From Convolutriloba macropyga (Eukaryota): DNA of 64,000 bases. The notes below the pieces were generated by a model that was not told the origin of the DNA, made no database searches, and worked only from the letters and a program-made list of their open reading frames with translations. This document shows positions 2,771 through 56,169 of this stretch, in pieces; position 1 is the first letter of the stretch, and every line of letters starts with the position of its first letter. Made by a program: the position numbers and the translations under genes. The stretch is taken from positions 8,866,001-8,930,000 of the forward strand of contig NC_134478.1 in assembly GCF_964194025.1 (NCBI RefSeq), given 5' to 3'.

Positions 2771-2832
2771 GGGAATCGAACTTCTTATCTCCTGCAATTT
2801 TGTTGTCTCTTCCACGACTGTGCTACCATAGC
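2771..2832 (-). promoter_or_regulatory. tRNA-like A/B-box remnant related to the 10531 cassette
   Basis: Minus strand reads TAGCACAGTCGTGGAAGA...TGCAGGAGATAAGAAGTTCGATTCCC. Confidence 0.5.
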
Positions 2833-7130: not shown

Positions 7131-9899
7131 CAAAATTAATTAACAAAATCAGGGTTGAGATCCCCGACCATTATAATTTTTGATTAAAACACGGGGGGGG
7201 GATGCGCTTTAAATTAAAGGTTCTGGTTGTCCTTTTCAACGCATGAACTTCTGGACATTGGTCTGTCTGAATTGAGTCAGAGACTATTTGCAAAGCGCGA
7301 ATATCTGATCAGAAGCAACTTCGAGAGCACCAAAATCAAGAGCATTGAAGAGACTCAATAGGAGTCTGCTAGCTCTAGTCAGAACCAAGGGTTCCAACAG
7401 CTAAAAATAACTAGTCTCTTTTATAAAGAACGTTTATCTCTACACTCACGGCGTTATTATGACAAAACTTAAGACTTGATACAAGCGTGCCCAGTCTAAA
7501 AACTGACATGATCAGAGCTCTGATGCAGTACTGATTAAAGACTTGCAATAAGACGTTTTCAGTGCTGATTAAGACTTGGCGTTCAGTCCGGGATGTCAAC
7601 GTTCAACTATAGTGCGAGCAATTTGGAACAGTGACATATACAAAATATAAGATTAAAGTTTTAATCCTTTGTCTTTTGTTTTTGAAGTGCAAATTAGACT
7701 TGCTATTGAAAACAATTCCGCTTGACTGGATGTTTTGGCGCATAAACCAATCTTTAAGATACGAGAAAAGTATAAAAAAGTTTTGTCAAAATTTAACGTC
7801 ACTCTCTGATTATATGATTTCTAGCGTAACTGGGTATGGCCAGAAAAGATTTGGGCCGCGAGCGGGGCAAATCAAAATAAAAAAATTTATCGGGCTTTAC
7901 TTGGAGCTCGCGAAAGCAAGCAACATGGTCTGTTTTGTGTCTGATCTGTGGAGTTCCACAACCCAGGAAAGTCTGGTGAGAGGTAATTTTGAGTCCGCAT
8001 TAATCTTGACAGTAGTCTCGTTTCAGTCTGGGCTATGGCCACTCAAAAGTTTGTGCGCAATTCTTGATTGATTCATATCGGTGGTCCTGGACTTAATGTC
8101 AAGTCTCTATCAGTACTGATTCAATGAAAATGCAAGCCTTGGATGAGTACTGAATCAAAACTCTGATCATGTCACCTCTTAGAAGTGGCACGCATCGAAT
8201 CAAGTCTGAAGTCAAGGCTTGGCTTATCTTGGTCAAGTAATGGCCATGACTTGGTAAGTCTTGAGACAAGTCTTGGATACGAGTTTGTTATAGGCTTTCT
8301 TTTGTTTTGCAACTAAAGAAGAAGCCCCTATTTACAATGGCCTGCATTCAAAGCGTCCCAAAGTAAAAAAGAAGCACGAGAAAATGCGAGCACTTCCACA
8401 AAGTTTACTTGATTAGAATGAACGAATTTCTTATTCGCCTAAGTAGAGCAGTCATGGTCACTAATTTCTGCTCAATGAAATAAAAAAACGCTTTTTGAAT
8501 ATATAGGATACGTTTTAGGGTGATAGGTGCTCAAGTCAGAAACAGCTTATTCGGACTAACAAATTTTCGACCAGCTAAATTTGGAACGCATTAATTATAA
8601 ATAAAGTCTTCTTAATACTCAACCTCGGAGAGACCTCAAACTTGGGAGAAGTTTACGCATATTGATCTGTCTTGAACAATTTTTTGACAATCCTTTGAAT
8701 TGGGAAAATTAGTCTTCGAAGGTGAATTTTGTCGCACTATTATTATTATCAAACATTTCCGAATTTGGCCACTTGTTTTCCAAGAGCTTTGGTCAATAAA
8801 TTTTTTGGCACCCTTCGATCTAAACTAATGACCAAACTGCTTCAGGAAATCATGAAATGAACTCTGATAACTTTTTAACTGTTAATCAGGATATCATGTA
8901 TCTTGCAAAAAATATGTAAAACTGAGATTTAACAGAGCTTTGTGTTATTTAAAAAGATTCTCAGAAAAGAGTAACAAACGCTCTGTTGAACAAAACTATA
9001 TACATCCGGAAATGTTTTTCAGATATGATTGTTGGCTCTTTCCCATAAAAGTCGGCTAAGATTTCACAAAATTAAAAAAAAAAACTAATATTTCAATAAT
9101 GGCGACAATTGCAAACAATGTGCCTCAAACAAACAATTTCATTTCATATAGCACCTAAAATGATACTATATTTATGATAAAGTTAACATCCAGTTTTTAG
9201 AGTCACAACTTTGGTTTTGTTTCGAAACAAATTTCGAAATGTCTTTCAACCAACAAGCTTCAAAACTGTTTATTTAGTAGATCCCGAATTTATATTTCAG
9301 CTTTTGTTAATGGTTTAACACATAGTTTCCATGCAGCTGTGTTCTTAATCTCCCGATCATCTGCCGTTTAACCGATAGACAAAAAAGCAGAATTACAAAT
9401 GAACCTTTATAACGTAATTTATGTCTTTTCGGCTGGTTGGCTTAAATCAACTCTAATTACTTGAATGAGCTGTTTTGCTTAATAAAGTTAATCAATTTTT
9501 GGCGTACACGTGTCATTTCTGTCCAAATACCATTTAGATGTATTGAGTGCTATCGTCAATATAAAATAAAAATCTACATTCTTTTGAATTTTCTCTTGCT
9601 GGCTCGTTGAGATATAGAATTTAATTTAGTGGAACAGAAAGTGACCCTTAACCTCAAATCTGATAGAAAAAATATCAAGCATAGATTAAAGATGTGCTTT
9701 CTTTTGACTGTTCGGTTGACATGTCGTTTTGATGTATAATATAAGGTAGTGGACTGAATAACAACCAAAAACAGACTCCACATAAGGTGTTTATTTCTCT
9801 TAGATGTAAATTCCCTTATTAAGAACGGGAGAGGAGTATTGGAGAAGTGTATTATATCACATTTGTTCGAGTCCATTTTGGCGAAATAAATGAAACGCG

Positions 9900-10794
9900 C
9901 CCGGGTCGAGGTGTCACCGCCATTCAACGCAAAATTATGTAAGGTAAGCGGTTAATGCGGATATTTTTGTAAGATAAGCGGTGAATGCGGTGAAATTACG
10001 TAAATCAGGCGGTGAATGCGGTGAAAAAAAACTTTATCGGCTGGTAGCGCTGAAATTACATAATTTAACCGCTGAATTTAGCGGTGAAATTACATAAATT
10101 CACCGCTTCGAAAAAAAGTGTCCAAATTATGTAAGATAAGCGGTGAATGCGGTGAAATTACATAAATTCACCGCTCAACTTAGTGGTGAACTTACATAAA
10201 TTCACCTCTTAGAAAAAATTCTTAAAGATGTTTGAGATCAGCAAAGAATGTGGTGAAATTAATGGTGAGTGTGGGAGGAATTGTTAGATTTGCCTTCCCA
10301 CTAAAACTACCCCTTAATCTTACATCTTTTTGACACTTTTTCTAAGCGGTGAGTTTATGTAATTTCACCACTAAAGTAAGCGGTGAACTTACAAAAATTC
10401 ACCACATTTCACCGCTAAAATATGTAATTTCACCGCTAAAAATTGCAAATCTTACAAAAATTCACCGCGCATGTTTTGCAGAAAGTAGAGTGAATTCGAT
10501 TTATATTCAAACAAAAAATAATAGAATTTAGTGAGAGATGGCGCAGTGGAAGAAGAAGTGGAAGACATGCAGGAGGTGAGAGGTTCGGACCCTTGTAAGG
10601 GCGGTGAAATTACATATTTTAGCGGTGAATTGTGGTGAATTTTTGTAAGATCACCGCTTAGTCTAGCGGTGAACTTACATAATTTCACCGCATTCACCGC
10701 ATTTCACCGCAAAATTATGTATGAAATTTGCGGTGAAAAAACTAACTTTTCACCGCTTATCTTACATATTTTTGCATTTTTTTCTCGACCCGGG
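9900..10794. mobile_element. Non-autonomous DNA transposon, CCCGGGTCGAG TIRs, 2-bp TSD (CG), internal GCGGTGAA/TTCACCGC repeats
   Basis: Perfect 11-bp TIR with CG on both sides. The paralogous empty site at 11125-11145 (GAAACGCATGAGAAAT) confirms the boundaries. Confidence 0.92.
10531..10596 (+). promoter_or_regulatory. tRNA-like Pol III A/B-box cassette inside the 9900 MITE
   Basis: A box TGGCGCAGTGG (10539) and B box GGTTCGGACCC (10582). No complete cloverleaf. Confidence 0.6.
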
Positions 10795-13700
10795 CGTGAG
10801 AAATTTTGAAGTGGTTTGGGTGCTGAAGAGTTTTGAAGATTGGAGCAAAGAAATAGTGGCTTTCTATTCATACCACTGTTTTCAAGAGAGCGAGAAATTG
10901 AGATGTAAAAAATTTGTAAGACAGCAAAATCTTTGTTCACGAGAGGCTTTAAATAAACGGGTTATTGCATTTTTGATTTAGAGTTTGATTATGATAATTT
11001 TGATTTGTTGGGGTTGTTTTAGCGAGAAATTTCTCTTAGATGTAAATTCTTTTATTAAGAACGGGAGAGGAGTATTGGAGAAGTGAATTATATCACTTTT
11101 GTTCGAGTGCATTTTGGCGAAGGAAATGAAACGCATGAGAAATTTTGGAGTGGTTTGGGTGCTGAAGAGTTTTGAAGATTGGAGCAAAGAAAGAGTGGCT
11201 TTCTATTCATACCACTGTTTTCAAGAGAGCGAGAAATTGAGATGTAAAAAATTTGTAAGACAGCAAAATCTTTGTTCACGAGAGGCTTTATATAAACGGG
11301 TTTTTGCATTTTTTGATTTAGAGTTTGATTATGATAATGTAGATTGGATGGGGTTGTTTTGATAGTGGTTTGAGGGTTGTGCTTTGAGTTTTAGGCTTTT
11401 TTATATTTCAGTTTTTGTTATAATTCAACAGTGGTTTAAGTAGGCACCAGTTTTTTGAAGGGATTGTTATTTGTTTTCTTCGAAGATGTTGTGGAACTTC
11501 CGGCTAAGTGTTTATTTTTTTTTAAAAAATCGCTCTTTCACGAAGAGTTAAGAATGCCTTGGACTGTTCTTCAAAGTCATTTTTGTTCACGTATTTTAAC
11601 AATTGTTCGTAAATAATGCTGTCAAAAGCCTCTTCAGATGCTAATTTGCTTATTCAATTTTTTTTCAACGGCTAGAATCAGTGAAATTGGCGCATATTTT
11701 GTAGGATCTGATCACGTTATCATAATAAAAATTTGTCTCATTGTTGGTTAGATTTAGTCATTGTGCACGACGTATTGTTGTACAGACTGGTGATGTAAGA
11801 TTTCTAGTACTGAACAAAAATCAACAGATTTTCATAGGAAACAGGTTATTATGTTGTGACAAAACAAATAAAAATTCTTAATTCTGTTTGTTTTATTGAG
11901 GTCTACGAGTCCTTTTTTGTTTTGATGACCAGGAAGGATTTGCATCAAAACTATAAAAAGTTTTGGCATTGTTGCAGTTTTAGAAAGAAGCCCATTTTTG
12001 AGAATTTTACAGAAGTGTTAGAGGAGTTTTCCAAAGTTTGTTCAGTTAATGTAACTACGTAGGAGCTAGAAAGTTTCACATAATTATTCCAACTTTTGAT
12101 AGTGTTCGCAACGTAATAATCGAGTTTTGATTTTGTGTTTGCGCTTTCGCGTGTTGGAGCTACATTTTTCCAAAAAAACAACAACATAGCACAATTTATG
12201 GCGACAGGATCATTTAAAATAGTTGAAAAAATTGTAAAATTGTCAAGGAAACCATCCAAATTCATCTCTTGAAATCCAGGTCACTTTTAACTATTAAAAT
12301 TTTTACTCACGCTTTCTTTGTTTTCTCTGAAACTCACTGTTTTTTTTGTGAGAAATTGGAGATTGCCTATTTAGTTTAAAGCTAAACTTTTGTTAGTGAA
12401 GTTGCTATATATTTCGATGGTAAGCATTGTTGATGTATGTTAAGTGGGCGCATGTTTTGAAGGAGAATCTTTTGTTGATTTTAGGCCAAATTTCTGAAAG
12501 AATGTTTTGAAGCCGTGTTATTTGTTGAGGAAATTACAGCTGAGCATCTAATTTAGTTATCAAATTTTGCACTTTCGGAATTTTTGCATTGTCAGAAATT
12601 GACAAAGGAAGGTGCAAGCACAGACTAATTTGCAAAAAGAGAGACGATTAGAATGAAATTTTTCAGTTTTTGACCAATTACCCATTCAAAGTGTTATTGA
12701 TGATCTCCATCGTCCTTAGAACAATAGAAAGCTGAATAAGTTAACAATCATTCAAAACATAAACAAAACAGTTGATTCTATTCTCAAGTAATTTTTAATC
12801 AGTATTTGTTTGTTCTTATTTTGTTATCAACCATCAAATTTTCATACTTTTGGCAAGATTGTGATTTTCCCCGGACTCTTATGTCACCGTGTTTATCTTT
12901 CCTTCAAACCAAATAATAACAATTGTGAGTTGACGCAATCATGTCACGTTTTTGTTTGCTATAGCAATGCTAACTTGAACTTTTGAAAACGGGTTGTTGA
13001 GATTCTTGACTTTCTTCAATGTATGCGATCATTTCATATTTGCAGGCTCTATCTCTATGAATAAAATGGTTTATTTTTGTCGTTGAAAAATAGAAGTTTG
13101 CATATCACTAAAAATATTTGGATCGAGTTTCAAGATTTCGCTAAAAAATGCATGTTTTTCTGTTCTCATTGAAAATTTAATTTTCAAAATACGTTTCCTT
13201 TGCTGTGCGTCATCGTTGCCGCATTGTTGCAATTTCTCGTAGCGAAAGTATAAAGTTGATTTTTTACAAAATAGAATATTTCATTTGAACAACACTGTAG
13301 TACTTTTTTTGTTATTCCGCACAAGAAAAATCGAGATGACCGGAAAGAGAGGATTTTGACCGGAATGAGCGGATAATCATTGCAAAAAGATACACGCAAG
13401 GAGCGGAATTTTAGCGGAAGAAAGTGCAAGACATGAACGTTTAATTCCTGCCGTTTTGATTCCGTTCACGTTTAAGGGGTTTGAGCGGATTTTGATAAAC
13501 TATCCGCTCAAACAAATTCCGCTCGTTTCTTGCATTTTCCCCGCTCATTCCTCGACTAGTGGAATGAAGTAAATTCTAAAATTTCATCATAAGTTTACTT
13601 CATCTCTTACAAAAATTTGTTCGAATTCAGCAGTAAAAGATGCGTATAAAACATTCACCTAAATCTCTACTTCTTGGTGCAAACTTTACCCTGGCAAATA

Positions 13701-13926
13701 TTATTTGATGTAAAAATTCAACCTATTTAAAGCACCATTTAAAAAACTTAAGATATCAGTCTTGAATTAGATTCTGTAATTTAATCAAGTCGATCAAAGA
13801 TTGATTAAATTGGTTTTCATCAAAGATTATATATCCTTGATTGGAAAATCCCAGGACGAGGTTCGCGGCTCAAGTCATCTCTGTGCAGACCATCCAGACC
13901 AAAATCGGTTCTGATCAGTCAGACTT

Positions 13927-14105
13927 CAGTCGCGCAAATGGGGTGCCAGACCGGCTTTGGTTGCACACTGGAGGTGACAGAATGACTTGAGTTGCGCATC
14001 GGGGTGCCAGAACCGCTTGGGTTGCTCATTTGTGTTGCCAGATGCAATTGAGTCGCGCACTGCGGGTGCCAGCCCCACTTCGGTTGCGCACTGGGGGTAC
14101 CCTGA
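13927..14105 (+). repeat. ~31-bp tandem repeat (GTTGCGCACTGGGGGTGCCAG-like), ~6 diverged copies, inside a TCTGATCAG-repeat element
   Basis: Repeated TTGCGCA...GGTGCCAG core. A degenerate terminus CCCAGGACGAG lies at 13850. Confidence 0.65.
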
Positions 14106-14899
14106 CTGACCCTACCGACCATTCTTTGCAAAAAATTGGGAAGTGCTCCTCAAAAAGCAGTCCCTTGGGGGTTAAGTATCTTTTTTCGGGGGACTGTTCG
14201 TTTTTCGGATGGACCTCTTAGTTCTTAGTAGACGTTCCAGACTCTGGCAAGAGCTCTGTTCAGACTGTCCAGAATACACGACACAACTATACAGACCCTA
14301 GACCTCACCACGCTATGATCAGACTATCCAGACTCTGGACAAGTCTCATATCAGACTGTTCAGACCTTAGGTAGTGCTCTAATCAGATCGTGCAGACTCT
14401 GAATGGGGTCCTGATAAGACTCTCCAGACCGTAGATAGTGCTGCCAGACTCTGTGGAGCGGTCGCAGTTTGCACCCCGTGCGCGACCCAAGTCGCTTTGA
14501 TCAGGTCTGGCTTGAATTGCGCACCTCATCCTGAGTTTTAATGGTGCCCCAGTCTTCGAACGCGAAAGGTAAAAAACCAGCAGATCTTGGGAGGGTAAAG
14601 ATGTCATAACTTTTCTAACCACAATATAGTTGAGTTGTTTTTGAGGAGTACTCTGCAAATTGAAAGCCTCGTTTACATACTCAGTGGGCGAGAGGCCGTT
14701 AGCTTCACCATACTTCTGTAACCCACAACCATAAATAAAGGGCTCTTTTCAAATACAGTTTGTCATATTATCAAAATAATTGACGTTTTTAATTCACAAA
14801 AAAATGTGTAATTTTGAACTTAATCCTTTCTACTGAGGACGGTTTTTTCCTAGAAACAACGAAAACAGCTTAAGAAAATTTTGCCAACTAGGCGTACTA

Positions 14900-15630
14900 C
14901 CCGGGTTGAATTTTTCCGCCCAAAATGATGTAAGAGCGGGGCTGCAATGGGAGGATTTTTTAGGAAAATGCCGCTCAAAACTCTTACGTTTTTTTGGGCT
15001 GCATTGGGCTTCCAAGGGGGGGGGGTAAAATGGTGTAAGAGTGAGGGGGTAAAAGACAAATTAACCCCCCGCTCTTACATTATTTTTAGTCTGCCAAGGG
15101 GGGTAAAATGGTGTAAGAGTGAAGGGTTAAAAGACAAATTAACCCCTCACTCTTACATCTTTTTTGGTCTGCCAAGGGGGGTAAAATAGTGTAAGAGTGA
15201 GGGGGTAAAAGACAAATTAACCCCCCCCCCACTCTTACATCTTTTTTGGTCTGCCAAGGTGGGTAAAACGATGTAAGAGTTGGGGGGTAATTTGTATTTT
15301 ACCCCCTTACTCTTACACCATTTTATCCCCCTTGGAAGCACAATGCAGCCCAAAAAAACGTAAGAGTTTTGAGCTGCATTTTCCTAAAAAATCCTCCCAT
15401 TGCATCCCCACTCTTACGTCATTTTACCCCCCTTGGCAGCCCAACTCTTACATCATTTTACCCCCTCAATATTACCTTGTTTTAGCCCCCATACCGGAAG
15501 AATGCCAGTCTTGAACCCACAACCTCTTTATCCTCAGCTGCGTCGCCTTATCCTCCAGGCCATCGATGCTTGTCCAACTCTTGACGGTCTATATATATAA
15601 ATAATAATTGTTAGAAATGCCCCATCACAA
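14900..15630. mobile_element. Left part of a CCCGGG-type element (GTAAGAG/CTCTTAC repeats) whose right arm runs into satellite
   Basis: Starts CCCGGGTTGA. 14925-15030 is inverted at ~15320-15425. Homologous to 33139-33374. No right CCCGGG terminus was found. Confidence 0.8.
15503..15569 (-). promoter_or_regulatory. tRNA-like A/B-box cassette in the centre of the 14900 element
   Basis: Minus strand reads GCATCGA TGGCCTGGAGGATAAGGCG...GAGGTTGTGGGTTCAAGAC. Confidence 0.55.
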
Positions 15631-17710
15631 CAAATTACCCCCTCACTCTTACATCGTTTTACCCCCCTTGGCAGCCCAACTCTTACATCATTTTACCCCC
15701 TCTGAACAAATTACCCACTCACTCTTACACCATTTTACCCTCCTTGGCAGCCCAACTCTTACATCATATTACCCCCTCTGAACAGATTACCCCCTCACTC
15801 TTACACCATTTTACCCCCCTTGGCAGCCCAACTCTTACCTCATTTTACCCCCTCTGGACAAATTACCCCCTCACTCTTACACAATTTTACCACCCTTGGC
15901 AGCCCAATTCTTAAATCATCTGACCCCCTCTGAACAAGTTATCCCCTCACTCTTACACCATTTTAACGCCCTTGGCAGACAATTCTTACATCATTTTTCC
16001 CCCTCTTAACAAATTACCCCCTCACTCTTACACCATTTAACCTCCTTGGCAGCCCAACTCTTACATAATTTTACCCCCTCTGAACAAATTACCCCTCATT
16101 CTTACACCATTTTACCCCCCTTGGCAGCCCAAATCTTACCTCATTCTACCCCCTCTGGACAAATTAACCCCTCACTCTTACACAATTTTACCCCCTTGGC
16201 AGCCCAATTCGTACATCATTTTACCCCCTCTGAACAAGTTATCCCCTCACTCTTACACCATTTTACCCCCTTGGCAGCCCAACTCTTACATCATTTTACC
16301 CCCTCTGAACAAATTACTCCCTCACTCTTACACCATTTTACCCCCCTTGGCAGCCCAACTCTTACCTCAATTTAACCCCTCTGGACAAATTACCCTCTCA
16401 CTCTTACACAATTTTTCCCCCCTTGGCAGCCCAACTCTTACATCATTTTACCCCCTCTGAACAAATTACCCCCTCACTCTTACACCATTTTACCCCCCTT
16501 GGCAGCCGAACTCTTACATCATTTTACCCCCTCTGAACAAATTAACCCCTCACTCTTACACCTTTTTACCCCCCTTGGCAGCCCAACTCTTACCTCATTT
16601 TACCCCCTCTAGACAAATTACCACCTCACTCTTACACAATTTTACCCCCCTTGGCAGCCCAAATCTTACATCATTTTAACCCCTCTGAACAAATTACCCC
16701 CTCACTCTTACACCATTTTACCCCCCTTGGCAGCCCAACACTTACCTAATTTTAACCCTCTGGACAATTTACCCCCTCACTCTTACACCATTTTACCCCC
16801 AATCGCAGCCCAACTCTTACCTCATTTTACCCCCTCTGGACAAATTACCCCCTCACTCTTACACCATTTTAACCCCCTTGGCAGCCCAATTCCTACATCA
16901 TTTTGCCCCCTCTGAACAAATTACCCCCTCACTCTTACACCATTTTACCCCCCTTGGCAGCCCAACTCTTACATCATTTTATCCCCTCTGAACAATTTAC
17001 CCCCTCACTCTTACAACATTTTACCCCCCTTGGCAGCCCAACTCTTACCTCATTTTACCCCCTCTGGACAAATTACCCCCTCACTCTCACACCATTTTAC
17101 CCCCCTTGGCAGCCCAACTCTTACCTCATTTTACCCCCTCTGGACAAAATACCCCCTCACTCTTACACAATTTTACCCCCTTGGCAGCCCAATTCTTACA
17201 TCATTTTACCCCCTCTGAAAAATTTACCCCCTCACTCTTACACCATTTTACCCCCCTTGGCAGCCCAACACCTACCTCATTTTACCCCTCTGGACAAATT
17301 ACCCCCTCACTCTTACACCATTTTACCCCCCTTGGCAGCCCAACTCTTACCTCATTTTACCCCCTATGAACAAATTACCCCCTCACTCCTACACCATTTT
17401 ACCCCCTTGGCAGCCCAACTCTTACATCATTTTACCCCACGTGAACAAAATACCCCCTCACTCTTACACCATTTTACCCCCCTTGGCAGCCCAATTCTTA
17501 CATCATTTTACCCCCTCTGAACAACATACCCCCTCACTCTTACACCATTTTACCCCCCTTGGCAGCCCAACTCTTACATCATTTTACCCCCTCTGAACAA
17601 ATTACCCCCTCACTCTTACACCATTTTACCCCCCTTGGCAGCCCAACTCTTACCTCATTTTACCCTCTCTGGACAAATTACCCCCTCGCTCTTACACCAT
17701 TTTACCCCCC
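15630..17710 (+). repeat. Satellite A, ~76-bp unit, ~27 copies
   Basis: Unit AAATTACCCCCTCACTCTTACACCATTTTACCCCCCTTGGCAGCCCAACTCTTACATCATTTTACCCCCTCTGAAC. Period 76 (15701, 15777, 15853). Confidence 0.97.
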
Positions 17711-20700
17711 ATTGCAGCCCACTCTTACATGGCAATTTCAGTCAGGGGATGTAATTCCTTAAAAGCCCTCCCATTGAAGCTCATTGCAGCCCACTCTTAC
17801 AGGACAATTTCAGTCAGGGGGGTAATTCCTTAAAAGTCCTCCCATTGCAGCCCATTGCAGCCCACTCTTACATGGCAATTTCAGTCATGGGGGGTAATTC
17901 CTTAATAGTCCTCCCATTGCAGCCCATTTCAGCCCACTCTTACATGACAATTTCAGCCATGGGGGGTAATTCCTGAAAACTCCTCCCATTGCAGCCCATT
18001 GCAGCCCACTCTTATATGGCAATTTAAGTCAGGGGGGTAATTCCTTAAAACTCCTCCCATTGCAGCCCATTGCAGCCCACTCTTACATGACAATTTCAGT
18101 CATGGGGGGTAATTCCTGAAAACTCCTCCCATTGCAGCCCATTGCAGCCCACTCTTACATGGCAATTTCAGTCAGGGGGGTAATTCCTTAAAAGTCCTCC
18201 CATTGTAACCCATTGCAGCCAACTCTTACATGGAAATTTCAGTCAGAGGGTAATTCCTTAAATGTCCTCCCATTGCAGCCCATTGCAGCCCACTCTTACA
18301 TGACAATTTCAGTCATCGTGGTAATTCTTTAAAAGTCCTCCCATTGCAGCCCATTGCAGCCCACTCTTACATGACAATTTCAGTCATGGGGGGTAATTCC
18401 TGAAAACTCCTCCCATTGCAGCCCATTGCAGCCCACTCTTAAATGGCAATTTCAGTCAGGGGTTAATTCCTGAAAAGTCCTCCCATTGCAGCCCATTGCA
18501 GCCCACTCTTACATGACAATTTGAGTCATGGGGGGTAAGTCCTGAAAACTCCTGCCATTGCAGCCCATCGCAGCCCACTCTTACATGGCAATTTAAGTCA
18601 GGGGGGGTAATTCCTTAAAACTCCTGCCATTGCAGCCCATTGCAGCCCACTCTTACATGGCAATTTCAGTCATGGGGGTAATTCCTTAAAAGTCCATCCA
18701 TTGCAGCCCATTGCAGCGCACTCTTACATGACAACTTCAGTCATTGGGGATTATTTCCTGAAAACTCATCCCATTGCAGCCCATTGCAGCCCACTCTTAC
18801 ATGGCAATTTCAGTCAGTGGGGGTAATTCCTTAAAAGTCCTCCCATTGCAGCCCATTGCAGCCAACTGTTACATGGCAATTTCAGTCAGGGGGGTAATTC
18901 CTTAAAAGTCCTTCCATTGCAGCCCATTGCAGCCCACTCATACATGGCAATTTCAGTCATGGGGGTAATTCCTTAAAAGTCCTCCCATTGCAGCCCATTT
19001 CAGCCCACTCTTACATGACAATTTCAGCCATGGGGGGTAATTCCTGAAAACTCCTCCCATTGCAGCCCATTGCAGCCCACTCTTATATGGCAATTTAAGT
19101 CAGGGGTAATTCCTTAAAACTCCTCCCATTGCAGCCCATTGCAGCCCATTCTTACATGGCAATTTCAGTCATGGGGGGTAATTCCTTAAAAGTCCTCCCA
19201 TTGCAGCCCATTGCAGCCCACTCTTACATGACAATTTCAGTCATGGGGGGTAATTCCTGAAAACTCCTCCCATTGCAGCCCATTGCAGCCCACTCTTAAA
19301 CGGTAATTTCAGTCAGGGGGGTAATTCCTGAAAAGTCCTCCCATTGCAGACCATTGCAGCCCACTCTTACATGACAATTTCAGTCATGGGGGGTAAGTCC
19401 TGAAAACTCCTCCCATTGCAGCCCATTGCAGCCCACTCTTACATGACAATTTCAGTCATGGGGGGTAATTCCTTAAAAGTCCTCCCATTGCAGCCCATTG
19501 CAGCCCACTCTTACATGACCATTTCAGTCATGGGGGGTAATTCCTGAAAACTCCTCCCATTGCAGCCCTTTGCAGCCCACTCTTAAATGGCAATTTCAGT
19601 CAGTGGGGGTAATTCCTTAAAACTCCTCCCATTGCAGCCCATTGCAGCCCACTCTTACATGGCAATTTAAGTCAGGGGGGGTAATTCCTTAAAACTCCTG
19701 CCATTGCAGCCCATTGCAGCCCACTCTTACATGGCAATTTCAGTCATGGGGGTAATTCCTTAAAAGTCCATCCATTGCAGCCCATTGCAGCGCACTCTTA
19801 CATGACAACTTCAGTCATTGGGGATTATTTCCTGAAAACTCATCCCATTGCAGCCCATTGCAGCCCACTCTTACATGGCAATTTCAGTCAGTGGGGGTAA
19901 TTCCTTAAAAGTCCTCCCATTGCAGCCCATTGCAGCCAACTGTTACATGGCAATTTCAGTCAGGGGGGTAATTCCTTAAAAGTCCTTCCATTGCAGCCCA
20001 TTGCAGCCCACTCATACATGGCAATTTCAGTCATGGGGGTAATTCCTTAAAAGTCCTCCCATTGCAGCCCATTTCAGCCCACTCTTACATGACAATTTCA
20101 GCCATGGGGGGTAATTCCTGAAAACTCCTCCCATTGCAGCCCATTGCAGCCCACTCTTATATGGCAATTTAAGTCAGGGGTAATTCCTTAAAACTCCTCC
20201 CATTGCAGCCCATTGCAGCCCATTCTTACATGGCAATTTCAGTCATGGGGGGTAATTCCTTAAAAGTCCTCCCATTGCAGCCCATTGCAGCCCACTCTTA
20301 CATGACAATTTCAGTCATGGGGGGTAATTCCTGAAAACTCCTCCCATTGCAGCCCATTGCAGCCCACTCTTAAACGGTAATTTCAGTCAGGGGGGTAATT
20401 CCTGAAAAGTCCTCCCATTGCAGACCATTGCAGCCCACTCTTACATGACAATTTCAGTCATGGGGGGTAAGTCCTGAAAACTCCTCCCATTGCAGCCCAT
20501 TGCAGCCCACTCTTACATGACAATTTCAGTCATGGGGGGTAATTCCTTAAAAGTCCTCCCATTGCAGCCCATTGCAGCCCACTCTTACATGACCATTTCA
20601 GTCATGGGGGGTAATTCCTGAAAACTCCTCCCATTGCAGCCCTTTGCAGCCCACTCTTAAATGGCAATTTCAGTCAGGGGGGGTAATTCCTGAAAATTCT

Positions 20701-21105
20701 TCCCATTGCAGCCCACTCTTACATGGCAATTTCAGTCATGGGGGGTAATTCCTTAAAAGTCCTCCCATTGCAGCCCATTGCAGCCCAGTCTTACATGGCA
20801 ATTTCACCCAAGGGGGATAATTCCTTAAAAGTCCTCCCATTGCAGCCCATTGCAGCCAACTCTTACATGGCAATTTCAGTCAGGGGGGGGGGGGGTAATT
20901 CCTTAAATCCCTCCCATTGCAGCCCATTGCAGCCCACTCTTACATGACAATTTCAGTCATGGGGGGTAATTCCTGAAAACTCCTCCCATTGCAGCCCATT
21001 GCAGCCCACTCTTAAATGGCAATTTCAGTCAGGGGGGTAATTCCTGAAAAGTCCTCCCATTGCAGTCCATTGCAGCCCACTCTTACATGGCAATTTCAGT
21101 CAATT
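17710..21105 (+). repeat. Satellite B, ~71-72-bp unit, ~47 copies, with a 1074-bp higher-order duplication
   Basis: Unit CCATTGCAGCCCATTGCAGCCCACTCTTACATGGCAATTTCAGTCATGGGGGGTAATTCCTTAAAAGTCCTC. Diagnostic variants recur at offset 1074 (18691/19765, 19301/20375, 19517/20591). Confidence 0.97.
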
Positions 21106-22419: not shown

Positions 22420-23366
22420 CCCGGGTCGAGGCCAAATGGTTATCTTGTAAGAACTTGCAAGTTTCTGGCAGAAACTTACAAGGCGATCCATCGCCTTGCA
22501 AGTTTTTCTTCCAAAAACCTGCAAGTTCTTACAAGTTATCCAATCGACTTGCAAGTTCTTACAAGTTAACCATTCGACTTACAAGGCTCTTACAAGTTAA
22601 CCATTCAACTTACAAGTTACTTACNNNNNNNNNNNNNNNNNNNNNNNNNNNNNNNNNNNNNNNNNNNNNNNNNNNNNNNNNNNNNNNNNNNNNNNNNNNN
22701 NNNNNNNNNNNNNNNNNNNNNNNNNNNNNNNNNNNNNNNNNNNNNNNNNNNNNNNNNNNNNNNNNNNNNNNNNNNNNNNNAAAACGTTGCAAGACAGGAA
22801 TGGAAACGGATGTTTGGAAAAAAAAGAATCAATCTGGAAAAGTGTGAATTAAATTACAAAAAGGGTATGAAAATTAAGGGCCACTAAATAATTTTGAGGA
22901 AATACTGACATATGAATTTGAAAATTCAATCAAAGTCAATATTTTGGCAACATTTTTATAAAAAAGTGATCATGAAGAAGCTAATTGAGATCTACAGTTT
23001 TTTAACGGAATTGCAAAAGGAACTCTCTTGAATTGATAAAATTCAAAAAGTAACCATTTTATCTACTTAGGTCGAATTGTATTATGTTATCCAAACAGAG
23101 CAACTAACTCCCGCGCGCTTTCTACGCAAAATGACTGAATGTTAAATTGAATTAACCAATAAGACTTGTGCTCAACCGGAACGAACTTGCAAGAAACTTA
23201 CAAATTAGCCATTCGCCTTACAAGTTCTTACAAGTTAATCATTCGACTTACAAGTTCTTACAAGTTAACCATCTTTTGCAAGAAACTTGCAAAATCTTAC
23301 AAGTTAACCATCTTTTGCAAGAAACTTGCAAGTTCTTACAAGTTAACCATTCGGTCTCGACCCGGG
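22420..23366. mobile_element. Non-autonomous DNA transposon, ~50-bp TIR starting CCCGGGTCGAG, 2-bp TSD (AA), CTTACAAG/CTTGCAAG subterminal repeats
   Basis: Left end CCCGGGTCGAGGCCAAATGGTTATCTTGTAAGAACTTGCAAG matches the reverse complement of the right end. AA flanks both ends. The element spans an N gap. Confidence 0.88.
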
Positions 23367-33138: not shown

Positions 33139-33374
33139 CCCGGGTCTTACAACAAATTCCACCCATTTTGTTGTAAGAGTGGGGAAGAGGTAGATTGATG
33201 TAAGAGTGAGGGGGTAATTTATCTTTTACCCCCTCACTCGTACATCATTTTAATCCCCTCGACAGGCCATTGAATCCCAAAGAGATTTAGGAGCTTTGAG
33301 CTGCATTTCCTTAAAGAATCCTCCCCTTGCAGCCCCACTCTTACATCTTTTTGGGCGAAAAAAATCGACCCGGG
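33139..33374. mobile_element. Short CCCGGGTC-terminated MITE, 2-bp TSD (TG), same family as the 14900 element
   Basis: TG|CCCGGGTC...GACCCGGG|TG. The reverse complement of its right ~110 bp aligns to 14900-15010. Confidence 0.85.
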
Positions 33375-33942: not shown

Positions 33943-35450
33943 ATTTTGTAAATTAGAGTGGTGGTGAAAAGTGTTTCAATAGGGTGAAAACAAAATCACT
34001 CGTTTCACTGTGCGAGCAGTGAGTGAGCGAGTTGTTGTAAAGATTGCCATAAACATGGCGGTGAAACTTTATTTTCACACTATTTTAAGTTTGGTGTTCA
34101 AATTTCTCTTACACAGAGATGTTGGCTCTGTCAATAGGCAACGAAAAAAGCATTCTGATCAGAGAAGCATCTAAAGTATGATGGCTCTGATCAGAACCAA
34201 AGGGGTCCAGCTGAAAAAAGTTATATACACAGTTATATACACAGTAAGAGAAGTTTTTTAGTTTATAAAAAAATGAGTTTGAGAAGTTCTTGTTAGGACC
34301 TAAAGTTCTATATAACTGCAGTAGAAGAGTTCCTCTGCCTCAGATGCACTCAGCCATTTCAAGTACCATGGAGGCCTTCTGTTGGCTGAAATTGACGTAT
34401 ACAAACGCTAGTGGATCGTTTTATTGGCTACCCTCGTGGAAATTGGTTAAAATGAGTGTGATAGTTTCTTCAGGTAAGTATAATGAATAAAAACAGAAAG
34501 ACAATATAAATGAAATGGGAAAACTTTAAATGCTCGATGGGCGTGGGTGGGACTCGCACCCACGCGTGTTGATGTTCTGTTCCTTTGAGGTAATAGTTCA
34601 CTGCACTAAGTTGACTTATGTTTCTCCAGGCTTTTCGATCCAAAGCTTCGTTCTTTCAATGTTTAAGTCGTTGCGAATTTAAAACGGAGATCGACAAACT
34701 GTTTTGAACTGTTTCGAACCGAAGCTCCCAGTTGTGCTGTTTTATTAGCGGTCCGCGCTAAGTGTCTTGTATGATGTTTCAAAAATTCAGTTTTCATTCA
34801 AATATGTTACTGTCCGCTTGAGTCAATTATAGCTAGGACTTAGATCGGTGGCCCTGATTTCAAATAGTCCTGCTTCGATGTCAAAAAAAAGATTGACGTG
34901 AGAAAAAACAACGGTTATGATTGATGAAGAGATGGAGAAAAAGAGTAAACAAAAACGTTGTTTCTGACTTAAAAAAGCATTATTATAAAAGTGACAGAAT
35001 TAGGAAATTAATAAAAAAAAGTGCTACGCTAACCTAAACAATAAAACCACTGAAACCAAACCATGCGCAGCACAAGAGTGAATTTTTTGTTTAATCTCAA
35101 AGACGTTTTCTTTTGAAATCAGTGGAGTGTTGAAGAAAATAGTAAAATACTCATCAACAAAGAAGAAATGAGAGGCTTCGAAAGAAGGCGTAAATGTTGG
35201 TGAATAACTACGCATAGAGATATTGATGACAGCCTGTGATCTGTTCAGCCCCGAATTGACTGGGCGAGCGGCTGGCCGAACAGATGAAGACAATTGAATG
35301 AGATGGACAGAGAAGGACAAAGACAGAATTGTATTCGCCCCCAAATTGACTAGGCAAGCGGCTGGCCGAATACATTTAACACGTCTGATTTTTCTGTTGT
35401 TTTCCATATTGTTAATATAGCGGGGAAAAATTATTTATTTTAAGGAAAGT

Positions 35451-35550
35451 TGGAGGCAACTGAGCTGGACTCGAACCGGGGTCGGAGAAAAGAAATCTTC
35501 TTTCTATCGTTAATAATCCACGCTTTGTTGACAACTGCGCCACATGCCTC
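35451..35550 (-). pseudogene. tRNA-derived pseudogene or SINE head
   Basis: GAGGCA TGTGGCGCAGTTG ... GGTTCGAGTCC ... TGCCTC: A and B boxes plus a 6-bp terminal stem, but the arms are non-canonical. Confidence 0.55.
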
Positions 35551-48778: not shown

Positions 48779-49046
48779 AGCATGTGGTATATCTGTATTA
48801 TTTATATTGTATTTGACTCCAGATGAAGTTTTACAATGAATGCTAATGGTACTGAAGCACATTCTCACATAGTTTTGATAATGAGAACTCAACTGAGCCA
48901 TTATTTTGTTTCAAAAAACAAAAAGATAAAAAAAGGTAAATGTAAAGCTAATAGTATAGTGGAATGTGTTTCAGTACCATTAGCATTCATTGTAAAATTC
49001 CATCTGGAGTCAAATGCAATACAAATAATACAGATATACACATGCT
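48779..49046. mobile_element. MITE with ~90-bp inverted arms
   Basis: AGCATGTGGTATATCTGTATTATTT...CACATTC is mirrored at ~48960-49046. TSD is unclear. Confidence 0.8.
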
Positions 49047-49332: not shown

Positions 49333-49769
49333 CAGTTGACTTTATGACTTTAATGGTACCAATAAAGTCAATTAAAGTCATTTTCCTTGCACTACCTATA
49401 ACTTTTAATTTAACTTTCCTTTTCAGTTTAAATTTTACTTTAAGTTCTTAGTTTAGTTTTTACTTTCAGTTTCAATTTCTTTTATACGTTAAATTTGATT
49501 TTAGTTTTTTTTCAAGTTAGCTTTATCACTTTCTAATTTTATTTTTACGCTAACTAATTTTTAATCAAAAAGTGAAATTAAACTTAAATTCAATATTCAA
49601 TCGAACCAAGGATCTACACAAGAAGACAACATATAAGAATAAAGAACAGAAGATAAAAAAGATTTAAACGATATAAGATAAAAATATGAGATAAGATAAT
49701 AACATATAAGAAAAAATACATAAGACAAAAAAGACATATTAGATAACCATGATGAAAAAAATTATGTAA

Positions 49770-52700
49770 GTCAACAGACTCATAATACAAGTGTATTTAT
49801 TGTATACATCCCATTTGACCAATTGAGCGTAAATGTGAATATGGAAGTGAGCTTCAACCTTTAGATGGAATGAATTTAATTATGGAACAAACAAAGATGA
49901 TGCTGCTTTTAGAGAAATATTAACGCAAGAAATATGACTGGAATCTTTTAACCCACATCCTTTCAACTCAACATTTAGTTTGCATCTTTTTTTAGGGATA
50001 TTATATGCATGCAATAGTTTTCATTAGAGAAGTTAGATCAGAGTTGGCTGTGACGGTAGTAACATTATATATATTTTGAGTTAAATAAATATTAACATAA
50101 GAAATAAATAACAAACAATACAGAGAAACAAATGATTAAATATATTGACTTCAACACAGAGACAACATTATAAGGAAGATAATAAATACTTTACAAATTT
50201 TAGTGAAAAAATTTAATAACTTTTGATTCATTAAAGAAAAACACATTGTTTTTTGTTGAATGGGTTTTTTATTATCGTTCAAAGCATTTTTGTTTCTTTT
50301 TGGGTCTTCATTTTGGTATTTATATTTATTTTTTTGGTGGGTAAAAGTCTTGGCTAAGTTTTATCTTATCACTCTTCCTTTAAAATATCAATAGTTTCTG
50401 GTTTACTTTTGAAAAAACTTATACCTATTTTTTATACGTTACTCGAATTCCCCATCGTATCTTATATTACCGATCAATTCCGAATCAGCGAACCGCATCA
50501 TGGCTCTTCGTACGATGTGACACACGACCAAGTAAAACCATCGCTTGCTTCAAATTAACATGTACAATTGTGTTAAATGAAAAATTCTAAAGTGATGTTT
50601 TTATGTGGAACCAAAGTCAGTGAAGCTTCTGGAAGAAGTTTAGTTAAAAATACATAACTGTACGTCATTTTTTTTACAATTCCGTCAACATGGCAGGAGA
50701 GTCAATACAAGTGTATATAAAGTTATCATTCCAATTGAGTGTTACGGAACGATTGGGAGTGAGTTTCAACCTGTAGGTAGAAAAAACTTTAATTAACCAA
50801 CTAACAACGATAATGATGTATTCGGAGAGATTGTAGCATTCGAAAAAAATGTGATGACAAAATGATGTCCCTCAACAGACTCATAATTCAAGTGTATTCA
50901 ATGTTGTAATCCCTGTTGTGTGTTGTTAAAAGATTGGAAATGACCTTAAACTTGTAGGAAGAAACAACTTTAATTAAGGAACTAACAATGATAATAATGA
51001 TTTCAGAGAGATTGTAACGTTCAAAACAAAATATGATGTCAAAATGATATAACTCAACAGACTCATAATACAAGTGTATTTATTGTATACATCCCATTTG
51101 ACCATTTGAGCGTAAATGTGAATATGGAAGTGAGCTTCAACCTTTAGATGGAATGAATTTAATTATGGAACAAACAAAGATGATGCTGCTTTTAGAGATA
51201 TATTAACGCAAGAAATATGACTGGAATCTTTTAACACACAACCTTTCAACTCAACATTTAGTTTGCATCTTTTTTTAGGGATATTATATGCATGCAATAG
51301 TTTTCATTAGAGAAGTTAGATCAGAGTTGGCTGTGACGGTAGTAACATTATATATATTTTGAGTTAAATAAATAGTAACATAAGAAATAAATAACAAACA
51401 ATACAGAGAAACAAACGATTAAATATATTGACTTCAACACAGAGACAACATTATAAGGAAGATAATAAATACTTTACAAATTTTAGTGAAAAAAATTAAT
51501 AACTTTTGATTCATTAAAGAAAAACACATTGTTTTTTGTTGAATGGGTTGTTTATTATCGTTCAAAGCATTTTTGTTTCTTTTTGGGTCTTCATTTTGGT
51601 ATTTATATTTATTTTTTTGGTGGGTAAAAGTCTTGGCTAAGTTTTATCTCATCACTCTTACTTTAAAATATCAATAGTGTCTGGTTTACTTTTGAAAAAA
51701 CTTATACCTATTTTTTGTACGTTACTCGAATTCCCCATCGTATCTTATATTACCGATCAATTCCGAATCAGCGAACCGCATCATGGATCTTCGTACGATG
51801 TGACACACGGCCAAGTAAAACCATCGCTTGCTTCAAATTAACATGTACATTTGTGTTAAATGAAAAATTCTAAAGTGATGTTTTTATGTGGAACCAAAGT
51901 CAGTGAAGCTTCTGGAAGAAGTTTGGTTAAAAATACATAACTGTACGTCATTTTTTTACAATTCCGTCAACATGGCAGGAGAGTCAATACAAGTGTATTT
52001 AAAGTTGTCATTCCAATTGAGTGTTACGGAACGATTGGGAGTGAGTTTCAACCTGTAGGTAGAAAAAACTTTAATTAACCAACTAACAACGATAATGATG
52101 TATTCGGAGAGATTGTAGCGTTCGAAAAAAATGTGATGACAAAATGATGACCCTCAACAGACTCATAATTCAAGTGTATTCAATGTTGTAATCCCTGTTG
52201 TGTGTTGTTAAAAGATTGGAAATGACCTTAAACTTGTAGGGAGAAACAACTTTAATTAAGGAACTAACAATGATAATAATGCTTTCAGAGAGATTGTAAC
52301 GTTCAAAACAAAATATGATGTCAAAATGATATAACTCAACAGACTCATAATACAAGTTTATTTATTGTATACATCCCATTTGACCATTTGAGCGTAAATG
52401 AGAATATGGAAGTGAGCTTCAACCTTTAGATGGAATGAATTTAATTATGGAACAAACAAAGATGATGCTGCTTTTAGAGATATATTAACGCAAGAAATAT
52501 GACTGGAATCTTTTAACCCACAACCTTTCAACTCAACATTTAGTTTGCATCTTTTTTTAGGGATATTATATGCATGCAATAGTTTTCATTAGAGAAGTTA
52601 GATCAGAGTTGGCTGCGACGGTAGTAACATTATATATATTTTGAGTTAAATAATTATTAATATAAGAAATAAATAACAAACAATACAGAGAAATAAATGA

Positions 52701-54260
52701 TTAAATATATTGATTTCAACACAGAGACAACATTATAAGGAAGATAATAAATACTTTACAAATTTTAGTGAAAAAAATTAATAACTTTTGATTCATTAAA
52801 GAAAAACACATTGTTTTTTGTTGAATGGGCTGTTTATTATCTTTCAAAGCATTTTTGTTTCTTTTTGGGTCTTCATTTTGGTATTTATATTTATTTTTTT
52901 GGTGGGTAAAAGTCTTGGCTAAGTTTTATCACATCACTCTTACTTTAAAATATCAATAGTTTCTGGTTTACTTTTGAAAAAACTTATACCTATTTTTTGT
53001 ACGTTACTCGAATTCCCCATCGTATCTTATATTACCGATCAATTCCGAATCAGCGAACCGCATCATGGATCTTCGTACGATGTGACACACGACCAAGTAA
53101 AACCATCGCTTGCTTCAAATTAACATGTACATTTGTGTTAAATGAAAAATTCTAAAGTGATGTTTTTATGTGGAACCAAAGTCAGTGAAGCTTCTGGAAG
53201 AAGTATAGTTAAAAATACATAACTGTACGTCATTTTTTTTACAATTCCCTCAACATGGCAGGAGAGTCAATACAAGTGTATTTAAAGTTATCATTCCAAT
53301 TGAGTGTTACGGAACGATTGGGAGTGAGTTTCAACCTGTAGGTAGAAAAAACTTTAATTAACCAACTAACAACGATAATGATGTATTCGGAGAGATTGTA
53401 GCGTTCGAAAAAAATGTGATGACAAAATGATGTCCCTCAACAGACTCATAATTCAAGTGTATTCAATGTTGTAATCCCTGTTGTGTGTTGTTAAAAGATT
53501 GGAAATGACCTTAAACTTGTAGGAAGAAACAACTTTAATTAAGGAACTAACAATGATAATAATGCTTTCAGAGAGATTGTAACGTTCAAAACAAAATATG
53601 ATGTCAAAATGATATAACTCAACAGACTCATAATACAAGTGTATTCAATGTTTTCATCCCATTTGAGCGCTAATGTGAATTTGGAAATGAGTCTTAATCT
53701 GTAGAGGGAAAAATTTAACTTTGGAACTAAAGTTGATGATGATGCTTTCAGAGAGATTGTAGCGTTCAAAACAAAATATGATGACAAAATGATATAACCC
53801 AATAGATTCATAATACAATTGTTTTGTATGTTTTCATCCAAATGAGTTTTAATCTGTAGAGGGAAACAAATTTAATTATGGAACTAACATTGATGATGAT
53901 GCTTTCAGAGAGATTGTAGCATTCAAAACAAAATATGATGACAAATTGATATAACTCAAGAGACTCATAATACAAGTGTATTTAATTTTTTCATCCCATT
54001 TCAGCGCAAATGTGAAATGGGAAATGAGTTTTAATCTGTAGAAGGGAACAAATTTAATTATGGAACTAACATTGATGATGATGTTTTTGACATACCATAA
54101 AGTAAAACCATCGGTCACTTCAAATTCACATGTACATTTTTGCTATGTGAAAAATTCTAAAGCGATGTTTATATAAAAAATTATATTCAGAGATTTTTCT
54201 GAAAGAACCTTAGTTGAAAGAACCTAACTGTACCTGACTTAATTTTTACAATTCTCTCAA
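49770..54260 (+). repeat. Macro-tandem repeat, ~1282-bp unit x ~3, containing and followed by ~180-bp subrepeats
   Basis: Near-identical ORFs at 50888, 52170 and 53453 (offsets 1282 and 1283). The subunit marker ACTCATAATACAAGTGTATT recurs about every 180 bp in part of each unit and through 53440-54060. Confidence 0.95.
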
Positions 54261-54951
54261 ACATTGTCGGAGAGTGCAATTGAAAAAAAAAGGAAATTGT
54301 TGTTTTCGTGACCATATGTTGCATGCGTTTATCAGTTGGTACCGTGACTTGGTAATTATTTTAAAAACACCAAAAATGAGTATGATTGTTTAATCCATGT
54401 TTTATTATTCATTAAAAAGGGGCTAAAAATGTGTTTGTTTTGTCTATTTTACTCTGTGTTCAAGCAGATAAGTAACATATATAAGTAACATATATTACTG
54501 ATCCCAACATCTTGGCCGACATGTTCTGTATCCTAACCATTTCTGGTCTGCCAATAGTCGACCCGACCATATAGGTTCAGTCTACACAAAGTTGTTTCAT
54601 ACCAAATATTGATCGCCCGTAACGAAATCCAAGTTTAAATCAGTACTGGCTCAGTCTAAATCCAACTGCAAGTCAGAACTGATTCAGAGAATCATTCATG
54701 ATCAACTTAGCTTTTGCTTGTTCAACTTTAGACCAGGTTTGATATTAAAGTCGTCAGACTTGATTAAACCTTTTTCAGTACTGACTTACACTTGCAGTTC
54801 GGTTCGGGCAATCAAGATCGCTTCAATCATCTACATTTGAACTAAAGATCTCTTTTCCGTGGCCCAAGGCCATCTGACATACCGGTTTTGGGTCGTCATA
54901 CTTGTCCTGGGCAAAATTAATTTGGTACAGTTATTAAAAAGTTTTACTCAC

Positions 54952-56169
54952 GAGTACAGAATCTGATAGAGTCTCTATCGCCAGCAAGTGGGGTGATCAG
55001 GACACCGTCAAAAGCAATAGCGGTTACTGTGAGTACATAGGCTGTTCCAGTGACCAGATTGTACACATGGATAGAACCCACAGCAGCTGGAGACTGATTG
55101 GAGGAGAAAACAACGGAATCGCAACCATTGTCATCGTCAGACTCACATGAGAGACTGATTTGGGATATATTTGCAGATACATTCGAATCAACTGCCGACA
55201 GATTGACCGATGTCTTGGTTGTAGATGTGATCGACAAGGAAACTTGAGAAGAGACGCTAGCTGATTTTGTAGCTCCCCCAATTAAAGTAACAGCAGAAGT
55301 AGCTCCTACTTCAGAAAAAGTCGCACCACCAGTGCTTCCAACGACTCCCTCCATCACCCCGGCAGTGGTGCCAACGGCTCCCCCCATCACCCCGGCAGTG
55401 GTGCCAACGACTCCCCCCATTACTCCGTCAGTGGTACCAACGACTCCCTCCATCACCCCGGCAGTAGTACTAGCGACTCCACCCATCACTGCTGCCAGAG
55501 TGGTGCTTCCGACGCCATCGAAAACTCTGGTAGTGGAACCGTCAACCCCACCCATCACTGCTGCCAGAGTGGTGCTTCCGACGCCATCGAAAACTCTGGT
55601 AGTGGAACCGTCAACCCCACCCATCACTGCTGCCAGAGTGGTGCTTCCGACGCCATCGGAAACTCTGGTAGTGGAACCGTCAACCCCACCCATCACTGCT
55701 GCCAGAGTGGTGCTTCCGACGCCATCGAAAACTCTGGTAGTGGAACCGTCAACCCCACCCATCACTGCTGCCAGAGTGGTGCTTCCGACGCCATCGAAAA
55801 CTCTGGTAGTGGAACCGTCAACCCCACCCATCACTGCTGCCAGAGTGGTGCTTCCGACGCCATCGAAAACTCTGGTAGTGGAACCGTCAACCCCACCCAT
55901 CACTGCTGCCAGAGTGGTGCTTCCGACGCCATCGAAAACCCTGGTAGTGGAACCGTCAACTAAAACACTAGTGGTGGAATCTGGGTCGTTACTTATTGTA
56001 CTAGTTGGAACGATGTATTCGCATCCAGTGACGCTGGCTGCTGAAAATATTGTTTGCGACTGGCCAGTTTGGCTGAGCTCATAGAGCCATAGTCCTGGTG
56101 TTCCTATGTTGGACGAGTTCAGTAGACACCCAGCATCGGCACCACCGGAGAAAGGAAGTTCAAATTTGC
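54952..56169 (-). CDS. Next exon of the same gene: NIDO C-terminus, G/V/T-rich repeat stalk, FN3-like domain
   Basis: Acceptor TTTTTTTTCCAG|GC at 56170/56169 joins in frame with the phase-1 donor (...GINGPSI-G-KFELPFSGG...LLNSSNIGTPGLWLYEL, the typical NIDO end). FN3-like motif VYNLVTGTAYVLTVTA follows. The exon ends FCT C|GTGAGT (donor at 54951, phase 1). Confidence 0.85.
55345..55960 (-). repeat. Coding minisatellite: 7 x 69 bp (VDGSTTRVFDGVGSTTLAAVMGG) plus 4 x 33 bp (VVGTTAGVMGG-like)
   Basis: Near-identical 69-bp units (55481, 55550, ...) are visible in both the DNA and the translation. Confidence 0.95.

Follow-up and report, generated by a model that had tools for sequence, protein, structure and literature searches.

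The window described here is a stretch of 64,000 nt from Convolutriloba macropyga (NC_134478.1, positions 8,866,001 to 8,930,000 of the forward strand; positions in the text and in Table 1 are window-based) and contains two different transposable elements starting with CCCGGG, each of which carries one tRNA-like module with the A and B boxes of RNA polymerase III (Pol III) promoters. A first-pass annotation had pointed out this arrangement, which is borne out by the boxes and the element ends and, in the case of the second element (el2), by complete copies elsewhere in the genome that carry the module centrally. Comparison across the genome indicates that the module, also referred to as the cassette, is a family trait that is general in several families and spreads with DNA transposons, and that its boxes are kept while spacers and arms turn over.

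Elements and Modules of the Window

Element 1 is bounded by 11-bp terminal inverted repeats (TIRs) starting with CCCGGG and flanked by a CG target-site duplication (TSD) at 9898–9899 and 10795–10796, and its arms are composed of short GCGGTGAA-type repeats. Contigs from two DNA runs diverge, with loose ends, at both ends of the element; no contig joint across it was found in these runs, so that no presence/absence polymorphism was seen. In the window copy of el2 the other arm has grown into satellite-like tandem arrays of 76-bp and 72-bp units which extend over 5.5 kb (15620–21100), and the second end of this copy was not found. Module 2 also forms tandem arrays together with pieces of the arms (units of ~640–760 bp) at several loci of the genome.

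The A/B-box module at 2772–2825 had been taken in the first-pass annotation (as 2771–2832) for a relative of the first cassette, a view that has to be abandoned: its boxes are real, it lies outside any CCCGGG element, has no TATA box or T run, is missed by the profile of module 1 and has one other copy, located within a duplicated segment. An inverted segmental duplication ~0.5 Mb away is suggested by matches at 2740 and 33139 (window 1–33400; G000:C11:8.34–8.37 Mb).

Table 1. Coordinates of the CCCGGG elements, modules and related features of the window.
Feature	Position	Strand	Basis and remarks
Element 1, non-autonomous CACTA/EnSpm-type (subfamily A), 895 bp	9900..10794	+	TIR, TSD, empty site
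Paralogous copy of the element 1 insertion site, element-free	11030..11200	+	Sequence comparison; 1.2 kb away
TATA-like box, module 1	10499..10507	+	Sequence; 32–40 bases upstream of A box
A box, module 1, TGGCGCAGTGG	10539..10549	+	tRNA weight matrix
B box, module 1, GGTTCGGACCC	10582..10592	+	tRNA weight matrix; G where tRNA B boxes have A58
Predicted Pol III terminators, T4 run (10617–10620) and T5 run (10640–10644)	10617..10644	+	Sequence
Element 2 (el2), second CCCGGG element	14900..21100	+	End at 14900, arm, module, then arrays
Module 2	15507..15562	-	A box 15562–15552, tRNA-Arg-like spacer, B box 15517–15507
TATA box upstream of module 2	15590..15604	-	Sequence
A/B-box module outside any CCCGGG element	2772..2825	-	Box matrix; low copy
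Cassette-less member of the el2 clade, 236 bp, TG duplication	33139..33374	-	One full-length relative only

Occurrence of the Module in Transposon Families

Elements 1 and 2 are assigned by their sequence to the non-autonomous transposons of CACTA/EnSpm type, as they display the features that define animal CACTA/EnSpm (TRC) elements: TIRs starting with CCC, a 2-bp TSD of free sequence and subterminal repeats, the last of which are typical of CACTA elements. The end sequence CCCGGGTYGA has 14,097 matches in the genome vs. 768 for control matches, and a 2-bp target duplication flanks 16 of the 19 copies with a downstream CCCGGG; a larger TSD count (86/96) is in part a consequence of how the ends were found and carries no weight here.

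A random 200 kb contained four CCCGGG sites and no element, and end patterns were used for sampling instead. Copies were chosen by end sequence alone and in the order of the genome; the search profile had its box columns masked. Subfamilies A, B, and C (with 369, 660, and 461 exact ends) carry the module in 35/51, 28/40, and 27/40 copies, respectively, that is, in 90/131, all 90 in one orientation, and in 73 of the 81 complete A/B/C copies of at least 480 bp. Its A box is located 211–263 bp from the right end and 273–651 bp from the left end of these copies. The el2 clade (248 exact ends) carries the module in 19/30 end-selected copies and family D in 15/30. The check on family consensus sequences suggested in the first-pass annotation has in this way been made, and the cassette is present in most end-selected copies of A/B/C and el2 and in half of those of family D. 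The subfamily of the window element is young, its 40 best copies being 97–100% alike.

The genome holds 592 perfect modules of the first clade. The first 30 of these were examined and all lie among repeats of the clade; 23 have both ends, 18 of them with a matching 2-bp duplication. None of the 30 is a free-standing copy, with a tail and its own TSD, of the kind expected for short interspersed nuclear elements (SINEs). In SINEs, moreover, the promoter opens the repeated unit at its 5′ end, which is not the case here.

The module is present in 26 of 82 ends sampled from any CCCGGG family (an element sampled at both ends counts twice); several CCCGGG families are without it, and complete cassette-less copies exist (16 listed, one of them mis-cut). 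The suggestion that the cassette is a regular cargo of these transposons thus stands for the subfamilies and the el2 clade counted above and fails for some CCCGGG families and for the transposase-coding parent described below.

Organization of the Modules as Pol III-Type Units

Boxes were scored with a weight matrix built from the genome's own tRNA genes, in which true tRNAs reach 20.5–37.2 bits. The three modules named in the first-pass annotation score 31.8, 25.7, and 19.0 bits and thereby rank first, second, and fourth among the window hits. Five window hits reach at least 17 bits vs. a mean of 1.05 in 20 shuffles, and because of these chance hits module 2 alone is only modestly above expectation by box score. 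Its spacer resembles the tRNA-Arg of the genome (z 4.3, 0/1000 shuffles, best of seven tRNAs) whereas the spacers of subfamilies A and B match tRNA-Ala/Thr/Cys weakly; it is therefore likely that the tRNA-Arg-like module 2 was captured separately from module 1, which makes two captures. Scans with ARAGORN and Rfam returned no tRNA and no other credible family, and the modules lack the cloverleaf and anticodon arm of a tRNA gene.

The units are arranged in the order TATA-like box, A box, B box and T run, with 41–45 bases from A to B box in the modules and 43–44 in true tRNAs. Among 11 modules, which are related and not independent, a TATA-like word occurs at the same place in 9 (background 0.03–0.05; 1/96 true tRNA genes), a pattern that was picked after the sequences had been seen. 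A run of five or more T residues stands behind the B box in 8/11 (background 0.13–0.19), the terminator lying 12–26 bases 3′ of the box; subfamily A has T4, in its sister subfamilies a T6 run follows the box at a distance of 15 bases, and el2, including module 2 of the window, has no T run nearby. The RNAs predicted from the modules have no stable or unusual fold (z −0.5 to 1.7). The true tRNA genes occur in long tandem arrays (units of ~270–470 bp) without an upstream TATA-like word.

Conservation of the Boxes

Differences between families defined by their arms are concentrated outside the boxes. Three arm-defined consensuses differ in 0/22 box columns vs. 31/84 other columns (p = 3e-4), and four of them in 2/22 vs. 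37/84 (p = 0.002). When A/B/C are compared with lineages D1, D2, E, and H, box similarity is 0.73–1.0 while the spacers (0.36–0.52) are at the level of shuffled sequence (0.38–0.43); lineages D, E, F, and H were recognized via their boxes, and decayed lineages would be missed by this comparison. Family E (516 bp, other arm repeats) matches A and B only in the upstream part of the module and the A box; the query used to select its copies contained part of the module. Among 18 end-selected el2 copies, differences per site amount to 0 in the A box and 0.025 in the B box vs. 0.05–0.08 around them (p = 0.002). Single A/B/C copies compared with their consensus differ at 0.06–0.07 per site in boxes and 0.08 in spacers. 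The first-pass annotation had named absence of the cassette from other copies, or boxes no more conserved than their flanks, as results that would count against it; at the level of consensus sequences neither was observed.

A Candidate Transposase-Coding Parent

Two cassette-less copies that share another interior led to a long family and one complete element, the candidate parent (G000:C9:1015623-1034325; 18,703 bp, TA duplication), whose ends match those of subfamily C with 93% identity over 176 bp and 90% over 154 bp. It contains an open reading frame (ORF) of 1091 aa with a SET domain (E 2e-9) and with weak matches, below the Pfam cut-off, to DUF1258 (E 0.003) and Transposase_21 (E 0.017); no match above the cut-off was obtained for the remaining ORF fragments of the element. 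The parent also has further spliced ORFs and internal tandem arrays, the 1091-aa SET-transposase frame being open. Extension of another long copy reached 10 kb only, so that the description is based on one full-length parent, and ten top Transposase_21 loci, taken with 20 kb each, showed no matching ends among the matches listed. The parent has no module (best profile match E 8.7), and the short elements are therefore not plain deletion products of it.

Complete elements with and without the module differ in how often a full-length twin occurs in the sample: 51/70 with the module vs. 2/18 without it (p = 2e-6), where five of the 18 cassette-less elements are added parent derivatives. The cassette-less element of the window (33139–33374) has its sole full-length relative apparently in the same duplicated segment, and only four exact-ended clade elements of 231–261 bp occur in the genome.

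Units Beyond CACTA Elements

A wider box search of the genome gave 1,006 matches, true tRNA genes included. It revealed family F, a frequent one, in which a unit of TATA, A box, B box and T6 stands centrally in a non-autonomous element (six copies examined) that ends in a 16-bp repeat and a hairpin; an inverted partner of the repeat lies upstream in 2/6. This layout is that of Helentron-type elements, and family F is termed Helentron-like. Three further loci of the 13 fetched from the search are CCCGGG-clade elements with new spacers. A near-identical dispersed repeat holds a pair of consecutive tRNA-like modules, with a long T run behind the second.

Proposed Role of the Module and Alternatives

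The lasting core of these elements may be a tRNA-derived promoter unit, with predicted binding of Pol III factors, that is kept because it helps the element's own movement, a reading that could equally turn out right or wrong. The unit has a fixed place and orientation between arms that match the transposase. Held by TFIIIC and TFIIIB, a patch 200–650 bp from the ends would stay free of nucleosomes and resistant to silencing; a borrowed transposase would then gain access to the arm repeats more often, and the next subfamily would descend from copies whose unit works. Movement would proceed by DNA cut-and-paste and not via the short RNA (~75–90 nt), which would be a by-product; the promoter cannot copy the element because hundreds of bases lie upstream of it and a terminator follows at once on the 3′ side. 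Since the boxes of single A/B/C copies decay almost like spacers, selection would act on founder copies and not through host use of each copy. The most likely role is chromatin opening at the level of the element, not insulation for the host. A precedent is given by yeast tRNA genes, described as nucleosome-free, able to block silencing via their A and B boxes and prone to pause replication forks (PMC7990762).

Several observations weigh against this reading, in addition to the manner in which the TATA pattern and the more distant lineages were picked out, and most of them would fit a passenger relic, that is, the head of a SINE or a tRNA gene that fell into a few founders and was carried without benefit. 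One CCCGGG family was amplified (273 exact ends) with no module in its three complete copies examined, and complete cassette-less copies are found elsewhere. The change of A58 to G, present in 34/34 copies of the young subfamily and in 14/32 end-selected A copies, did not prevent amplification and marks the youngest burst. The spacer of A/B/C is also largely conserved (11/32 columns vary), searches are biased to intact boxes, and on an arm-only tree of 85 copies the deficit of box changes on inner branches is not significant (permutation p = 0.089, Fisher p = 0.72). An earlier branch test (p = 0.004 and 0.026) was set aside, its tree having been made from non-box columns and being biased to the favored reading. 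Founder history, moreover, could give the same twin pattern as an advantage of the module. A mere passenger is nevertheless unlikely: the boxes remain intact in lineages with shuffle-level spacers and unrelated arms, the same layout occurs with two or more tRNA sources and in another class of element, and the TATA box has no counterpart in the tRNA genes of this genome and would not be brought in by a retroposed head.

That the small Pol III RNA is itself the useful product, either as a decoy for silencing factors or as a cofactor of the transposase, is improbable. The terminator kept close behind the B box in 8/11 modules and the partial conservation of the A/B/C spacer would agree with it, but the spacers are unrelated between lineages and without stable fold, el2 lacks a near terminator, and a diffusible RNA would be of the same help to copies without a cassette, in conflict with the twin comparison. 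Quite improbable as well is that the bound Pol III complex pauses forks or provokes breaks and so leads to transposition in S phase, gap repair and more copies; pauses and breaks are known at yeast tRNA genes (PMC7990762), module-bearing units also occur in tandem arrays and the module has a central, fixed position, but the sequence data do not separate such an effect from one exerted through accessibility.

Retention of the copies by the host as insulators or small-RNA genes is very improbable. The barrier role of tRNA genes is known (PMC7990762), tip branches show slightly fewer changes in boxes (permutation p = 0.022) and box variation is lower in el2; against this, boxes in single copies of A/B/C decay almost as fast as spacers, and the insertions are young and dispersed. 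The idea that insulators are being spread, put forward in the first-pass annotation, therefore finds no sign in its favor, and what survives of that interpretation is the spread of the cargo with transposons, without extension to all CCCGGG families, to the parent or to the module at 2772–2825. Movement via the Pol III RNA, as in SINEs or in the TRIMp3 elements described below, is scarcely credible in spite of the type of promoter, which is central, with 270–650 bp upstream and a T run at once behind, in elements that have inverted-repeat ends, 2-bp duplications (16/19) and a match to a transposase-coding parent.

Put forward tentatively, a wider formulation of the element-level reading is that these elements may be the DNA-level counterpart of SINEs: long-lived non-autonomous lineages in which a Pol III promoter forms the core and the arms, which match a transposase, can be exchanged. 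Such lineages would have originated on more than one occasion, in two classes of DNA elements of this genome, and would use the Pol III machinery for openness and not for copying.

Relation to Known Systems

SINEs derived from tRNAs have a 5′ head with tRNA-like A and B boxes, a body, a tail and long TSDs. The elements described here share with them the boxes at tRNA spacing and ends specific for a partner, and differ in that the 5′ head position, body, tail and long TSD are absent while an upstream TATA and a close terminator are retained.

Triticeae CACTA elements with a 5S rDNA-like sequence were reportedly described by Wicker in 2003, in a family said to be named Caspar. Plant CACTA elements sometimes hold 5S-like sequence (PMC5688495) and thus also carry sequence of a Pol III gene inside a CACTA transposon; as far as this source describes them, they are of 5S type, from plants and occasional, whereas here the unit is of tRNA type, has a fixed position, belongs to short non-autonomous families and is absent from the parent. 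In animals, CCC ends and 2-bp duplications mark CACTA/TRC elements such as SmTRC1 (PMC1636069) and Spongebob/EnSpm-4N1_HM (PMC4298943). The present families resemble these in their CCC ends, 2-bp target duplication and, putatively, a Transposase_21-like parent protein; the accessible text of those reports mentions no Pol III unit, and the parent found here is SET-fused with a Transposase_21 match below the Pfam cut-off.

Pol III promoters are known from the TRIMs (terminal-repeat retrotransposons in miniature) Cassandra, Helenus, and Ajax, grouped as TRIMp3 (PMC10886601). As described there, these are likewise non-autonomous, have the promoter of a small-RNA gene and not a working tRNA, and borrow their enzyme, but they are long terminal repeat (LTR) retroelements in which the promoter makes the template RNA, unlike the present elements, which have no LTR and a central promoter unable to copy them. 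LTRs, primer site, polypurine tract and a 4–5-bp TSD are absent here, and inverted ends with a 2-bp TSD are found instead. A table on rDNA-derived elements in a 2024 review places the 5S promoter in retroelements only, while a legend also names DNA transposons (PMC10946416).

MITEs (miniature inverted-repeat transposable elements) have been described as being without a Pol III promoter (PMC3879986, PMC3845634). The present elements are like them in being short and non-coding, with inverted ends, short TSD and high copy number, and unlike them in having the complete Pol III promoter that the definition and the elements pearl and DTC84, as presented in one of these sources, lack (PMC3879986). 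In the full texts searched, which include few subscription papers or Repbase entries, TIR MITEs with a tRNA-type unit as a constant component were not found to be reported; a prior mention may exist. The arrangement appears to be new among non-autonomous CACTA elements, and the trick is so far known chiefly from elements that are copied via RNA.

Certain MITEs exceed the parents that code for their transposase by hundreds of copies, and SINEs have been told apart from MITEs by the presence of a Pol III promoter. If the proposed role is true, the module would represent a testable cause in cis of MITE success and a new selfish use of TFIIIC and TFIIIB, with hundreds to thousands of strong Pol III sites scattered genome-wide (592 perfect modules in one clade alone). 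The scattered modules also confound the annotation of tRNAs and SINEs.

Other Features of the Window

A third CCCGGG element, with an AA duplication, other arm repeats and a center partly composed of N, is located at 22420–23366. More modules resembling A and B boxes lie on the minus strand, outside CCCGGG elements, at 34550–34608 and 35468–35533, and an inverted repeat with 78-bp arms at 48787–49039 holds an A-box-like word between the arms and a weak B box (17.7 bits). The window also contains a 1283-bp tandem triplication (49758–54245) and a frame of 422 aa (54944–56212) with 23-residue repeats on a 69-bp array.

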